64,000 bases of DNA from contig JAJRSK010000045.1 in the NCBI GenBank assembly GCA_024278835.1, forward strand, positions 3,444-67,443, given 5' to 3'. The stretch is from Campylobacterales bacterium (GTDB lineage Bacteria > Campylobacterota > Campylobacteria > Campylobacterales > QNZT01). Below the pieces are notes generated by a model that did no database searches, was not told the origin of the DNA, and saw nothing but the letters and a program-made list of their open reading frames with translations. Shown piece after piece: positions 2,731 to 62,312 of the stretch. Numbering within the stretch: position 1 is the stretch's first letter; each line of letters begins with the position of its first letter. Position numbers and translations under genes: made by a program.

Positions 2731-3927
2731 TTAATTAGTTTTTTCTTTAATCACATTTACCAAATTACCCTCTGCTTCTTTACGCATCAATAAAATGATA
2801 ACATTGGATACCAATGCTAAGGAAATCCAAAAATCTTTATGGTGTAAGGAGGGGATAGTCATCCCCATCAGTACAATGGAAAGCGAAGCTAAATAGAGCC
2901 AAGAATAATCACTTCGCATGATTTCCAGAAACCTTGTTGTAAAAAGTGCCAAAATAAAAAGTGTAAATGTTAAAAAAGAAAAAATACCTGATTCAGCAAA
3001 CACTTTTATAAAATTATTATGAGATGGTTTTGCCTCTTCTGCTAGAAAGTCTTTCACATACCTTCCTGAAACATTTCTAAACTCTCCAAACCCGACACCC
3101 ATAAAAAAGTGATCACGAATCATCTCTCCTCCAGCGCGCCATACGATAAGCCTTTGCTCAAAAGTTCCGGTTTTTTGCGCTCTGCCTTTTAGTCCTTCAA
3201 CCGCAGTACTACTCATCATGACGCCTGCAGATATAACACCTGCCAAAATCATAGTGGCAATCAACCCTTTAGCTGAAAAGACATGTGTAACAATGTTTTT
3301 AAATCTAAAAATAAAGACAATAAGAAGCATAAGTGCCAAAAATATAAATGCTGATTTAGAACCAGCAAAAAGTAGTGTATAGGTAAAAATACCTAATGAA
3401 CCCAATAAAAAGAACCAATTTTTATTTTTTTGAAACAGATATACTGTCACAAACTGTATTACCAAAAGTTGTGCTGCAAAACTATTTGGATCCTCTGTAG
3501 CACCAGTTTTTCTAAAAGTATACATACCTAAGGTGTCTGAGAAGTAAGCCACCACAGAAGAGAGTATCATGATAGCCCAAAGCATATAGAGAATCTTATC
3601 CAATTCCTTAGCATAAGAAAAGTAAACAAATAGGGCAAAGATTGAAAACATTCTCGTCACACCCACCACCAGTGTCCCATCAAAGTATAAGAGATTAGAG
3701 ACCAATGTAACCACAGTCAAAACTAGCATAAAGATATAAAATATCCTCATTGGTCTACTTGTTTTGGAAGAAAACATCTCTATATAATCATATATATGGA
3801 GGAGAACAAATAGTGCTAAAACTACTTTGATAATATAATAACCTGTTAATTCTATGGATAATGTATCATTAAATGAGACAAACAATAGTAAAAATAGTGA
3901 AAAATCTTTTAGGTACTTAAACAGCAT
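2731..3927 (-). CDS. O-antigen polymerase/ligase-like membrane protein (Wzy_C family)
   Basis: 398 aa and about 10 TM helices. A large loop with RAGGEMIRDHFFMGVGFGEF and HNNFIKVFAESG is typical of the O-antigen ligase/polymerase family. Cluster context. Confidence 0.7.
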   Translation of the reverse strand: MLFKYLKDFSLFLLLFVSFNDTLSIELTGYYIIKVVLALFVLLHIYDYIEMFSSKTSRPMRIFYIFMLVLTVVTLVSNLLYFDGTLVVGVTRMFSIFALFVYFSYAKELDKILYMLWAIMILSSVVAYFSDTLGMYTFRKTGATEDPNSFAAQLLVIQFVTVYLFQKNKNWFFLLGSLGIFTYTLLFAGSKSAFIFLALMLLIVFIFRFKNIVTHVFSAKGLIATMILAGVISAGVMMSSTAVEGLKGRAQKTGTFEQRLIVWRAGGEMIRDHFFMGVGFGEFRNVSGRYVKDFLAEEAKPSHNNFIKVFAESGIFSFLTFTLFILALFTTRFLEIMRSDYSWLYLASLSIVLMGMTIPSLHHKDFWISLALVSNVIILLMRKEAEGNLVNVIKEKTN

Positions 3928-5200
3928 TTACTTCTCCTTTTTTCATCACTTTATATAAAACTTTTTGTGCAAAAATATATTCAACACCGACCATAACACC
4001 ATTCATCATGATAAATCCTATGATGGGATATTCTCCAAACATAAAATAAACTGATAAAAGTACCAATACTAATCTTATACTATTTAGTAAAAGTTCCAAA
4101 TTGTTAAAATTAAATGTTTTGGATAGTAGTGTAATCAAACTAAAATATGCAATCAACATATATGATAAAATCAATATAAAAACAAAGATAACCGATCGAT
4201 CAGAAAGATAAGCAGGCTTAATTAAAAATACCATATACGCCACTAAAAAGGAGGCAAGCAATGCTCCTAGAAAAAACTTCCATTTCACTTTTTGTATTTT
4301 ATCCACATATATCATGATAGCACCCATATCAGAGATATTAAATTTTGATATAAGGTAAGAACGAATCGACGTAATAAAAACCAAAACCAAACCAAAAAAA
4401 CTAAATGCATAACCAAGTTCTGCCATCAATACGGTCATCTTATGTTCCGTTACGTAGATGATAGGATAACGCCCTGCATAAACATAAAGGAAAGTAATGA
4501 GATACGTTATCGATGAAAAGAGTATAAATTGCTTCAGTCTCTTTATCATGATAGTGATATAACGCGTATCATGATACGCACTTTTAACAGCTTCTATCGT
4601 ATATCTTATATTCTCTTTCAATGAAAGTAAAAGCATAAATAAAAATGGCACGATAAAGAGATAAAGATAGATATGATTTAAGTCTATACTCTCTTCACTC
4701 ATGAAAATATATATCAAAAACCCTATTCTTATAAATAAGATAACAAAAGAATTTACGATAATAAATCGAATATTTTTCTTCGCCAAAAGGTTATTCTTAA
4801 AAAAGACCCACATTAACACGGACAGAGCAGACAAATAAATATACTCTTGTTTTATATCTATACTACCGATGCCAAAAGCTTTATCCAAGAGAGAACCTAC
4901 AGCACTATTTGCCAAAACGAGCATCATGATAAAGATTAAGAGTTGTAAAAAAGCGTTGATATACTTGGTTGTTTGATAGATTTGATTATGTCGTAAAAAG
5001 CTTGTTACTATGCCAAATTCAAAAACAAAAGAAAGTAACATGATGATATTAAACGCAGCAGAAAAATCTGCCATCGTCTCTAAATGAAGTTTATACGGTA
5101 TAAGTAGTGCGATAAGATAGGTAGAGAAGCTATAAATCAAACTTGAAAGAAAGTAGAGTGCCCCTTCATTCGTTGCAAGTTTTTTTAGCTTCTCCCTCAC
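3917..5200 (-). CDS. Polysaccharide flippase (Wzx / MOP superfamily)
   Basis: 427 aa and about 12 TM helices, very hydrophobic. Lies between the Wzy-like gene and the sugar-nucleotide genes. Confidence 0.65.
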   Translation of the reverse strand: MREKLKKLATNEGALYFLSSLIYSFSTYLIALLIPYKLHLETMADFSAAFNIIMLLSFVFEFGIVTSFLRHNQIYQTTKYINAFLQLLIFIMMLVLANSAVGSLLDKAFGIGSIDIKQEYIYLSALSVLMWVFFKNNLLAKKNIRFIIVNSFVILFIRIGFLIYIFMSEESIDLNHIYLYLFIVPFLFMLLLSLKENIRYTIEAVKSAYHDTRYITIMIKRLKQFILFSSITYLITFLYVYAGRYPIIYVTEHKMTVLMAELGYAFSFFGLVLVFITSIRSYLISKFNISDMGAIMIYVDKIQKVKWKFFLGALLASFLVAYMVFLIKPAYLSDRSVIFVFILILSYMLIAYFSLITLLSKTFNFNNLELLLNSIRLVLVLLSVYFMFGEYPIIGFIMMNGVMVGVEYIFAQKVLYKVMKKGEVNAV

Positions 5201-60677: not shown

Positions 60678-62312
60678 CTATTTTTTTGCCTCTAAAGAAG
60701 CTTTTACAAATCCTAATATCGCTGGATTTGGATTTTGCAGTTTAGAGGTAAACTCAGGGTGAAACTGTACCCCCAAAAACCAAGGGTGCTCAGGAATCTC
60801 AATAACTTCTATCAAGCCATTTGACTCACCAGAGATGATCATCCCTTTTTCTTCTAACGCTTTTCTGTAAGCTGGATTTGCTTCATAACGGTGTCTATGT
60901 CTCTCTACTATCTTTGGACTATCATGATAGACAGAACGAAGCAATGATCCCTCTTTTGTGTCGCATTCGTACCCACCTAAACGAAGTGTTCTACCAAGAG
61001 GACTTTGATGTGTTCTTATCTGCTCTCCACCACTTGCATCTATGAAGTTATCGATAAGATAGATAAGTGGATTTTTTGTCTCTTCATCAAACTCTATAGA
61101 GTTTGCATCTTCTAAACCTAGTACATTTCTTGCATACTCTATCATAGAGAGTTGCATCCCAAGGCAGATACCTAAAAATGGTACTTTTCCCTCACGGGCA
61201 CAACGAATCGCCTCTATCTTCCCCTCTACACCACGCTGTCCAAATCCACCAGCAACCAAGATACCATCTACATCTGAAAAAAGTGTACTACATTGTTCAG
61301 CTGTAACTAGCTCACTATCTATCCACTTCAGATTGACTTTTGTATCTAGGTGTGCCCCGACGTGTACAAAAGATTCAGTAAGTGACTTATAAGACTCTTT
61401 GAGCTCTAAATACTTTCCTACAAATCCTATCGTAACCTCTTTTCTAGGTTCGATAACATTTTTCACCAATGTACCCCAGTTTTCCATATCGGGATGCAAC
61501 TCTGGCATATCTAGTGTCTCCGCGATAGGACTTAAAATATCTTGTGCTAAAAAGTTCATCGGAACTTTATAGATAGACTTTGCATCTAATGCTTCGATAA
61601 CACAATCTTGATCAACACCACAAGAAGAGGCTATTTTATTTTTCATTACTTTAGGAATTTTTTGTTCAGAACGGCAGATGATGATAGAAGGAGAGATACC
61701 GATACGACGTAACTCTTGGACGGAGTGTTGTGTCGGTTTTGTTTTCAATTCTCCTGCTGCTTTTAGGTATGGGACAAGGGTGAGGTGTATAAACATCGCC
61801 TTTTTCTTGCCTACCTCTGTTCGAAACTCACGCGCTGCTTCTAAAAATGGTAAAGACTCGATATCACCTACCGTACCACCCACTTCTACAACCAAGACAT
61901 CGTGCCCTTTACCTGCCACTTTGATACGTCTTTTTATCTCATCTGTGATGTGAGGGATAACTTGAATCGTCTTTCCTAGGTAATCCCCTCGTCTCTCACG
62001 CTCTATGACCGAAGAGTAAACTTGCCCCGTCGTAAAGTTATTGCCTTTGCCAAGTGAGATATCCAAAAATCTCTCATAATGCCCGATATCCAAATCCGTC
62101 TCAGCGCCATCATGCGTCACAAAGACTTCTCCGTGTTCAAGCGGGCTCATCGTACCTGGATCGACATTGATATAGGGGTCAATTTTGAGCATAGAGACCT
62201 TCAATCCAGAATGCTTTAAAAGCGTTGCGATACTTGCAGATGCGATACCTTTACCCAGTGAGCTAAGCACTCCACCTGTCACAAAAATATACTTCGTTTT
62301 TGAATTTGCCAT
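60678..62312 (-). CDS. pyrG: CTP synthase
   Basis: [17 protein letters not shown] and the GATase GICLGMQ, 544 aa. Confidence 0.97.

Follow-up and report, generated by a model that had tools for sequence, protein, structure and literature searches.

A hyper-abundant ten-base palindrome in an uncultured Campylobacterales lineage and its replacement by other words in related lineages

The stretch of DNA analyzed herein, which we refer to as the window, is a 64-kb segment of contig JAJRSK010000045.1 from a Campylobacterales bacterium, and it contains 74 open reading frames (ORFs) by a simple gene call (92% coding). Scattered through these genes and the spacers between them is a 10-base palindrome, TATCATGATA (hereafter, the word), which is present in 37 exact copies. 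They had been located by eye in an earlier, sequence-only reading of the same DNA, and all 37 of its coordinates proved exact on recount. The copies are listed below with the strand of each ORF in brackets, where IMI and YHD denote the frames in which the word is translated as Ile-Met-Ile (nnT-ATC-ATG-ATA) and Tyr-His-Asp (TAT-CAT-GAT-Ann), and where retention refers to the eight genomes of the clade that is described further below.

3565..3574: IMI frame (AIMI) of ORF 2731-3927 (-), Wzy_C-like
4310..4319: IMI frame of ORF 3917-5200 (-)
4544..4553: IMI frame of ORF 3917-5200 (-), 23 bp from the copy at 4567
4567..4576: YHD frame of ORF 3917-5200 (-)
8662..8671: IMI frame of ORF 8548-9684 (-)
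10210..10219: YHD frame of ORF 9983-11965 (-), called Tkt in the sequence-only reading, a label that was not re-verified
11417..11426: IMI frame of ORF 9983-11965 (-)
11996..12005: IMI frame of ORF 11978-12835 (-)
14916..14925: YHD frame of ORF 14122-15426 (-)
16374..16405: intergenic pair, with copies starting at 16374 and 16396, just 3' of ORF 16413-16763 (-)
20219..20228: intergenic, directly 3' of ORF 20231-20659 (-)
21843..21852: IMI frame of ORF 20994-22253 (-), previously labeled SecY
30887..30896: IMI frame of ORF 30845-31396 (-), CDP-OH_P_transf; kept in 7 of 8 clade genomes
31457..31466: intergenic, between divergent genes, forming a close pair with 31482
31482..31491: central ATG starts ORF 31486-32559 (+)
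32562..32571: central ATG starts ORF 32566-32835 (+)
33789..33798: intergenic
35234..35243: central ATG starts ORF 35238-35552 (+)
36708..36717: YHD frame of alanine racemase, 36649-37668 (-); kept in 8 of 8 clade genomes
37273..37282: IMI frame (FIMI) of alanine racemase, 36649-37668 (-)
37303..37312: IMI frame (GIMI) of alanine racemase, 36649-37668 (-), 30 bp from the copy at 37273
39201..39210: IMI frame of ORF 37917-39497 (-), Sulfate_transp/STAS orthologue
42215..42224: IMI frame of ORF 42128-42670 (-)
44526..44535: IMI frame of ORF 44391-45407 (-), LVIVD-like
45078..45087: IMI frame of ORF 44391-45407 (-), LVIVD-like
45357..45366: IMI frame of ORF 44391-45407 (-), LVIVD-like
45532..45541: IMI frame of ORF 45455-46015 (+), RNase HII orthologue
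47124..47133: YHD frame of ORF 47073-47801 (+), CN_hydrolase orthologue
47549..47558: IMI frame of ORF 47073-47801 (+), CN_hydrolase orthologue
47794..47803: ATGA stop/start overlap, in which the ATG starts ORF 47798-48457 (+) and the TGA ends ORF 47073-47801
48798..48807: central ATG, on the minus strand, starts ORF 48459-48803 (-)
51003..51012: YHD frame of ORF 50845-51456 (-), RNase_T exonuclease
52099..52108: IMI frame of ORF 51463-53361 (-), DUF294/CBS
57076..57085: YHD frame of ORF 56846-57568 (-)
58266..58275: IMI frame of ORF 57912-59108 (-), Cache/HisKA sensor
60920..60929: YHD frame of CTP synthase, 60678-62312 (-)

The number of copies is far in excess of any expectation based on composition. 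Dinucleotide-preserving shuffles of the window yield 0.20 copies (maximum 2), Markov models predict 0.2, 0.9, and 6.9 copies at orders 0, 3, and 5, respectively, such that the count stands well above even the high-order value, and the word is the commonest of the palindromic 10-mers in the window. The tetranucleotide CATG at its center is not enriched (220 vs. ~250 expected), TCATGA is found 67 times (vs. ~27), and the 8-mer ATCATGAT 46 times (vs. ~4-5), with 37 of the 46 lying within TATCATGATA. Hence it is the full-length word, rather than its core, that carries the signal. Nor is there depletion of the type caused by restriction: the word itself is in excess, and CATG as a whole occurs about as often as expected. 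The flanking sequences are heterogeneous, with an entropy of ~1.9 bits per column, no conservation past the first base on either side and no longer consensus. The preceding base is C in 18 of the 37 copies and the following base is G in 21, in agreement with the bias noted by eye. There are 19 one-mismatch copies in the window, of which the sequence-only reading had listed nine, eight of them exactly and one, placed at 41212, that is located at 41202.

How the word is accommodated within genes shows that the force behind it acts on DNA. Coding sequences (CDSs) hold 27 of the copies, 19 in the IMI and 8 in the YHD frame, five others have a central ATG at which translation of a gene begins, with Met-Ile... 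(31482, 32562, 35234, 47794, and 48798), and the remaining five are intergenic (16374, 16396, 20219, 31457, and 33789), where the density is 2-4 times that of coding DNA. The use of these two frames, and of genes as well as spacers, is as the sequence-only reading had described. It had in addition assigned the third, TGA-containing frame to gene ends, and although this frame is indeed kept out of CDS interiors (no copy inside any CDS of the window uses it), the gene ends in question are mostly gene starts, represented by the five start-codon copies. The two tripeptides are the most over-represented of all among the window proteins, with YHD present 12 times (vs. 0.73 expected, 16-fold) and IMI 21 times (vs. 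4.0, ~5-fold). When synonymous codons are shuffled within genes, which keeps both protein sequence and codon usage, 4.4 copies (maximum 9) are obtained compared to the 27 that are observed, and shuffling of codon order yields 0.24. The shuffles and the tripeptide excess together argue for a force on the DNA that biases codon choice and also alters amino acids, as had been proposed from the frames.

The lineage that carries the word was defined by means of two window proteins, alanine racemase (Alr) and CTP synthase (PyrG). An identical copy of Alr is found on a 73-kb contig of a metagenome-assembled genome (MAG) at NCBI. The protein also has graded relatives, and those that are named are all Campylobacterota. 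The named relatives of PyrG are 'Campylobacterales bacterium' (91% identity) and 'Campylobacteraceae bacterium 4484_4' (79%), and the nearest cultured genus is Sulfurospirillum (~73%). A clade was sampled as the DNA surrounding the Alr gene in seven further assemblies (from NCBI, ENA, JGI, and Logan; Alr identity 86-62%). In all eight assemblies TATCATGATA is the commonest 10-mer, at 0.43-1.1 copies/kb, and the enrichment is therefore shared by related genomes. Assemblies with this word include GCA_054040595.1, GCA_054028155.1, GCA_054019895.1, GCA_024762875.1, and GCA_054041865.1. In a more distant relative, L089 (Alr identity 57%), there is a single copy. Among the matches listed at an Alr identity of 54% or below, 36 loci from other Campylobacterota (Sulfurospirillum, the Arcobacter group, Sulfurovum, Sulfurimonas, Campylobacter, Helicobacter, and Nitratifractor; ~560 kb) hold one copy in total, and none is present in 44 loci from other phyla (722 kb). 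The word is a trait of one uncultured lineage of Campylobacterales.

The orthologous proteins point the same way. In the Alr alignment, the positions of GIMI, FIMI, and YHD are IMI or YHD only inside the clade, and the outgroup sequences there read ISF, IVP, YKLI, YFHT, EIGT, and others. Similarly, the VYHDSP of PyrG, which is patchy within the clade, is derived from outgroup sequences of the type VYGGAKK/VYDNQE. Judging from these alignments, the IMI and YHD of both proteins arose inside the clade, and relatives outside it have other residues.

A search of metagenomes for close pairs of the word returned at least 120 loci, and 3-9 copies are present in at least 62 of these, indicating that word-dense DNA is common in environmental data. 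Two matches of higher GC content (L150 and L224) were rejected as cases of the dispersed word since they are tandem repeats of 8 and 37 bp. A viral scan for motif pairs returned no phage with genome-wide enrichment; what it yielded were chance pairs, a tandem repeat, and a local array. The tandem repeat, of ~171 bp, contains TATCATGATA and is unrelated to the dispersed word (L110:9500-11300 and L122; IMG/VR 3300005573_000082). The array lies in two phage-like sequences of low GC content (27-30%) that are 96% identical over 2.7 kb (L112:500-2250 and L108:400-2200; IMG/VR 3300033066_000988, 3300020576_000246-like), and consists of 14 copies of GGTATCATGATA(C/A) among which CTATATTATAT units are interspersed, all within ~1.7 kb of non-coding sequence. 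In appearance it resembles an array of iterons, operators, or promoters. Two copies in L108 that are outside the array lie in MORN-repeat proteins (YHDNG).

Within the clade, word sites show maintenance as well as turnover. In codon alignments of 31 orthologous genes from the eight genomes, sites are shared in 56% of ordered pairwise comparisons (262 of 469; 54 expected), whereas background 10-mers taken from these genes in matching frames are identical in 11.5%, which means that word sites are kept ~5 times more often. Certain sites, such as the YHD of Alr, are present in every one of the eight genomes. Others are patchy, and there the orthologous non-motif sequence deviates from the word at one to six positions. 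An analysis of variants in 200 kb of clade DNA, which contains 150 copies of TATCATGATA (vs. 3.0 expected, order-3 Markov), revealed only one clearly enriched one-mismatch variant, the outermost transition CATCATGATA or its reverse complement TATCATGATG (30 vs. 4.2), with a second, TGTCATGATA, being weakly raised (7 vs. 1.9). One-base deviations at positions 1 and 10 total 32 (vs. 8.9), and those at positions 2-5 are overall at or under expectation. As the outer variants are enriched and the internal ones are not, the maintained core is ATCATGAT and the outer T/A is softer, with a weak Y/R preference beyond it. The sequence-only reading had taken the 12-mer CTATCATGATAG as the full unit, which was an overstatement; it occurs nine times in the window, the strict unit is the 8-mer, and C and G at the ±6 positions are a mere preference.

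Where the word is located depends on how conserved the surrounding gene is. Its density is 1.04/kb in genes with less than 88% amino-acid identity within the clade and 0.13/kb in genes at or above that value (Spearman rho = -0.43, p = 0.017), and in Alr and PyrG it occupies variable columns of the alignments. In each genome where the ribosomal-protein operon is present, it is almost devoid of the word, with at most 1-2 copies per genome and none in the stretches from relatives. In the window, the only copies in this block are at 21843, inside ORF 20994-22253, and at 20219, just past ORF 20231-20659, exactly as had been noticed by eye. The first 3.5 kb of the window was likewise correctly said to lack the word; none is present in this low-GC (32%) Wzz/Poly_export/Wzy capsule locus. 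Recently acquired clade DNA does not contain it either, in the form of a HipA/Fic block and transposase insertion (L083), RelB/ParE (L085), and a LicD polysaccharide cluster (L087). Pairs of words separated by 40 bp or less (15-34 bp) are in ~3-fold excess (14 vs. 4.5 expected). The pair at 16374/16396 lies 3' of an operon, where as RNA it is predicted to form a 13-bp hairpin (-16.5 kcal/mol, z = -5.3); other close pairs are in a promoter region or inside genes.

Related lineages have different words. The sister lineage L129 (GCA_054011135.1), with the same GC content and a CTP synthase that is 84% identical to that of the window, has no copies of TATCATGATA and instead contains TAGTACTA 27 times in 21.6 kb (vs. 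0.57 expected), often as TTAGTACTAA. This word also has heterogeneous flanks, skips the integrase and toxin-antitoxin block of the locus, and encodes LVL/IVL or xSTx, with its TAG frame never being used. We rejected the idea that it replaced the window word in situ as the sites in shared genes mostly differ, with two of eight being nearly coincident. One of the two is in the CDP-alcohol phosphatidyltransferase gene (30845-31396), where at the position of the window word L129 carries two overlapping words of its own (TTAGTACTAGTACTAA) within 10 bp (alignment columns 493-503), and the LVIVD-like gene holds the other. It seems that certain positions in proteins act as general 'parking spots' for the word of either lineage.

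An unbiased scan of all sampled loci for dispersed, over-represented 8-mers, filtered by flank entropy, identified further words in other Campylobacterota, as listed below with observed and expected counts.

L020, Campylobacterota MAG243: TTACATGTAA, counted as TACATGTAA on both strands, 15 vs. 0.24
L014, Sulfurimonas sp.: TACATGTA, ~7 dispersed copies, the word also being in a CRISPR repeat
L089, GCA_027081145.1: TACATGATA, asymmetric, 12 vs. 0.36, six per strand
L029, Helicobacter sp. SUG209: AAGATTCCA, non-palindromic, 13 vs. 0.32, with 9 and 4 on the two strands
L036, Helicobacteraceae HGM08974: GGATC-based words, 12-14 vs. ~1

The same scan of the 44 loci from other phyla, among the matches listed, gave almost nothing comparable. 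Several of the words have the common architecture TA-(CATG or GTAC)-TA, TACATGTA is found in both L020 and L014, and the asymmetric word of L089 is oriented 12:3 with the coding strand. The GGATC-based 8-mers of L036 (CGGATCTA, CTAGATCC, AGATCCGA, and AGATCTGA), which overlap, occur 12-14 times each and have heterogeneous flanks, may be the word of yet another lineage. Weaker dialect candidates, again with heterogeneous flanks, are present in two Sulfurimonas MAGs, TAAACGCAG in L026 (12-13 vs. 1.2) and CTCACGCAG-like words in L025 (8-9 vs. 0.7). The 33 copies of TACATGTA in L014 were rejected as a strong dispersed case because 25 are CRISPR repeats. The array in question (L014:1-1650, Sulfurimonas sp. 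RIFOXYD12_FULL_33_39) has ~25 repeats with a period of 64-69 bp, and its 30-nt repeat, CTTGAACCGATACATGTAATGTATTGAAAC, contains TACATGTA. As a separate observation, the 20.7-kb locus of L029 contains CATG just three times and TCATGA not at all, a strong avoidance of the restriction type.

Judged by sequence-level hallmarks, most of which are found here, TATCATGATA is the same kind of thing as the highly iterated palindrome HIP1 of cyanobacteria (GCGATCGC) and the DNA uptake sequences (DUS) of Neisseriaceae and uptake signal sequences (USS) of Pasteurellaceae. The resemblance had been suspected from the window alone, and the enrichment, dispersal, conservation, and distribution described above fit both. 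Like HIP1, it is a short perfect palindrome in more than 100-fold excess that is present in genes and spacers with unrelated flanks, and its sites are kept between related genomes above background. As pointed out by Elhai (PMC4390886), the one-base deviations of HIP1 are also biased to the outermost positions and alternate HIPs replace it in related lineages. HIP1 is recognized by a 15- to 300-fold genome-wide excess, to be compared with 37 copies vs. 0.2 expected for TATCATGATA, and the location of TACATGTA inside the CRISPR repeat of L014 resembles that of a HIP1-related sequence in a Synechocystis CRISPR repeat (PMC6604393). The differences are that TATCATGATA is AT-rich, 10 bp long, and from Campylobacterota, whereas HIP1 is GC-rich, 8 bp long, and from cyanobacteria; that the core here is CATG/TCATGA rather than GATC/CGATCG; that cognate methyltransferases are known for HIP1 but none was found in the window or the sampled clade contigs; and that one related lineage here uses an asymmetric word. 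With both its sequence and its phylum being different, TATCATGATA is an analogue of HIP1 and not HIP1 itself.

The genomes that host USS and DUS are roughly 2 Mb in size. They contain 1,471 and 1,892 copies (Findlay & Redfield, PMC2817400), and the density of ~1/kb is similar to the 0.43-1.1 copies/kb of the clade. Three rules reported for uptake sequences, namely inflated tripeptides, absence from genes without homologues, and a preference for poorly conserved genes and residues (PMC2817400), all hold for TATCATGATA, as does the existence of lineage 'dialects', and the predicted hairpin of the inverted pair 3' of an operon resembles DUS pairs. On the other hand, DUS and USS lack symmetry, are 9-12 bases long, and have defined uptake receptors or assays, whereas TATCATGATA is a palindrome known from sequence only, and the tripeptide inflation is 5- to 16-fold here vs. 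roughly 2-fold for USS/DUS. Within the same phylum, PMC10046745 (citing Beauchamp 2017) states that Campylobacter jejuni imports only DNA that is methylated at RA(m6A)ATTY by CtsM, which on that account is likewise a short palindromic motif for the discrimination of self DNA in transformation. It differs in being 6 bp long and degenerate, compared to the accumulated 8-10-bp words described here. Since RAATTY is frequent by chance in an AT-rich genome, genome-wide accumulation is neither needed nor reported. Oligomers of the Chi/KOPS type are also over-represented and self-identifying short words, and these are asymmetric, strand-skewed, and present at ~1 per 4-5 kb. We know of no report that such words force amino-acid changes on this scale.

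With a confidence somewhat short of even, we propose that TATCATGATA is a self-DNA tag that is read in natural transformation, and that a methylated CATG core would be a plausible part of the signal. This explanation is favored by the hallmarks shared with HIP1 and DUS, by the C. jejuni methylated uptake motif, and by recent studies in which methylated HIP1 raised transformation more than 100-fold (bioRxiv 10.1101/2024.09.10.611283) and HIP1 was tied to the DNA-uptake machinery (bioRxiv 10.64898/2026.06.24.733823). In such a scheme a DNA-level process would hold the word at ~0.5-1 copy/kb, overriding codon choice and, where tolerated, amino-acid sequence. We infer a sequence-specific reader in the natural-transformation pathway that would prefer word-bearing DNA and would probably recognize the word when its central CATG is methylated by a methyltransferase of the lineage, comparable to CtsM of C. 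jejuni and to methylated HIP1. Uptake or recombination would then favor word-bearing fragments, so that word-creating alleles would spread and word-destroying ones would be replaced by biased gene conversion or molecular drive, with purifying selection on proteins restricting the possible sites, and related lineages would have switched to other words.

Several points weigh against such a tag. The ~450 kb of sampled clade DNA yielded neither a competence gene nor a DNA methyltransferase, and a regular-expression screen of its ORFs for methyltransferase motifs gave one match that is BamA by Pfam; the reader and writer are hence hypothetical. Classical DUS and USS are asymmetric whereas TATCATGATA is a perfect palindrome, a symmetry that an uptake receptor explains no better than would a dimeric protein that binds or modifies DNA. 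Site conservation and the avoidance of constrained or foreign DNA are to be expected under any genome-resident drive or selection, and Xu et al. (PMC5861425) took equivalent data on HIP1 as pointing to nucleoid structure. Finally, a phage contig has the same 10-mer densely clustered at one place, so that it can also function as an ordinary operator to which a protein binds.

The alternative that survives best, although we consider it unlikely, is a methylation-coupled repair ratchet, either as in Elhai's model for HIP or as a Vsr-like very-short-patch (VSP) repair, in which a methyltransferase would mark the inner core, a repair activity would preferentially turn near-matches into the word, and the copies would have no function. 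It would readily explain why deviations are confined to the outermost positions around a strict inner 8-mer, the pattern on which this model was argued for HIP1 (PMC4390886). The ~1/kb density moreover equals the set-point proposed by Elhai, and the cores CATG, GTAC, TCATGA, and AGTACT are typical targets of Type II methyltransferases and restriction enzymes, but the sampled DNA did not yield a methyltransferase, and the word of L089 is asymmetric and that of L029 is not palindromic. Many of the orthologous non-motif states deviate at 3-6 of the 10 positions and are not one transition away. An enrichment of more than 100-fold is also far above known VSP effects, which at CCWGG in E. coli are modest. 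To our knowledge, cultured Campylobacterota (H. pylori and C. jejuni) are without MutS1/MutL/MutH mismatch repair, making a version of the ratchet that depends on it unlikely.

It is less probable still that the copies are binding sites for an abundant dimeric protein associated with the nucleoid, segregation, or replication, and are kept by selection on chromosome structure. The known sites of such proteins (parS, matS, NBS, and SBS) number in the tens per genome, compared to an estimated 1,000-2,000 copies of the word, and a structural role does not predict the avoidance of acquired DNA or a fast switch of words between sisters. Nevertheless, a perfect palindrome made up of two 5-bp half-sites is ideal for a homodimer, the ~3-fold excess of close pairs (15-34 bp) could reflect cooperative binding, the phage contig has the same 10-mer in an operator- or iteron-like array, and sites are kept well above background, as is the case for HIP1 (PMC5861425).

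We give slightly less credence again to a Chi-like 'self' signal acting on an AddAB/RecBCD-type nuclease or on recombination at DNA ends, independently of uptake. Known Chi sequences are asymmetric and skewed with the replication strand, whereas a palindrome has no polarity, and the density of 1/kb is 4-5 times that of Chi in E. coli. What makes this explanation worth considering is that the word is abundant on self DNA and absent from foreign DNA, as befits a self-marker, that the asymmetric word of L089 follows the coding strand, and that homologous HIP1 sites raise integration, for which a Chi-like contribution has been suggested (bioRxiv 10.1101/2024.09.10.611283). The core of a miniature inverted-repeat transposable element, repetitive extragenic palindrome, or other mobile repeat, selection at the level of protein or codon usage, and an assembly artefact are hardly credible, given flanks that have no terminal repeats and do not align into a longer repeat (the sequence-only reading had likewise not taken the word for a mobile element), the use of two frames, start codons, and spacers with a codon shuffle that yields 4.4 copies vs. 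27, and in-frame conserved orthologous sites in eight assemblies from four sources. A Fur-, PerR-, or NikR-type transcription-factor box was rejected on copy number and intragenic location.

Returning to the self-DNA tag, it is possible, if doubtful, that it applies to the Campylobacterota as a phylum, in the form of fast-switching 8-10-bp 'passwords' (TATCATGATA, TTAGTACTAA, TTACATGTAA, TACATGATA, AAGATTCCA, and the GGATC-based words) that would be read by a machinery of methylation plus transformation, such that a switch of password would be an instant barrier to gene flow and a mechanism of speciation. This would suggest a means of sexual isolation in a phylum that is famed for promiscuous recombination. 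If the password reading is true, the HIP1 problem, now thirty years old, could be tested independently in these lineages, as an AT-rich system; the function of HIP1 is only now being linked to transformation.

Only a few other groups are known to have hyper-abundant words, namely the cyanobacteria, with HIP1, and two families of proteobacteria, with DUS/USS. What is new here is the phylum, the AT-rich nature of the words, and a clear switch between sister lineages, rather than a new category. Full-text searches of the literature found the 10-mer only in unrelated papers, none of them on a genomic element, and nothing relevant for the 8-mers. Searches on uptake sequences and Campylobacterota gave nothing, and on over-represented palindromes and Epsilonproteobacteria one unrelated restriction-modification paper, in accord with the sequence-only reading, which did not recognize the word as a described element. 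With at least 4-5 words and a clean switch between sisters, the Campylobacterota represent a natural comparative experiment, in which a gene whose specificity switches together with the word should be its reader or writer. The 16-fold excess of YHD illustrates how strongly such a process reshapes proteins, and the word is a sequence marker for binning and tracking uncultured lineages.

Other features of the window concern individual genes. An in-frame TAA at 20693-20695 (GGTGTT-TAA-AAA-GAT) interrupts the gene for methionine aminopeptidase (20231-20989, minus strand), which is either a pseudogene or carries an error of assembly or sequencing at a run of A/T. At 59105-60516, a frameshift near 60180 divides recJ into two ORFs that overlap (60163-60516 and 59105-60187), and RecJ of the sister lineage L129 is intact (530 aa); the assembly may be in error here, or this recombination exonuclease may truly have been inactivated. 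Three consecutive genes of the HSP20 family (40632-42019) are absent at that position in L083, L085, L087, and L088, and are kept in L001, L082, and L090. The plus strand of the window contains 13,571 C and 9,915 G and nearly all genes are on the minus strand; the window appears to lie within one replichore with its genes co-oriented.

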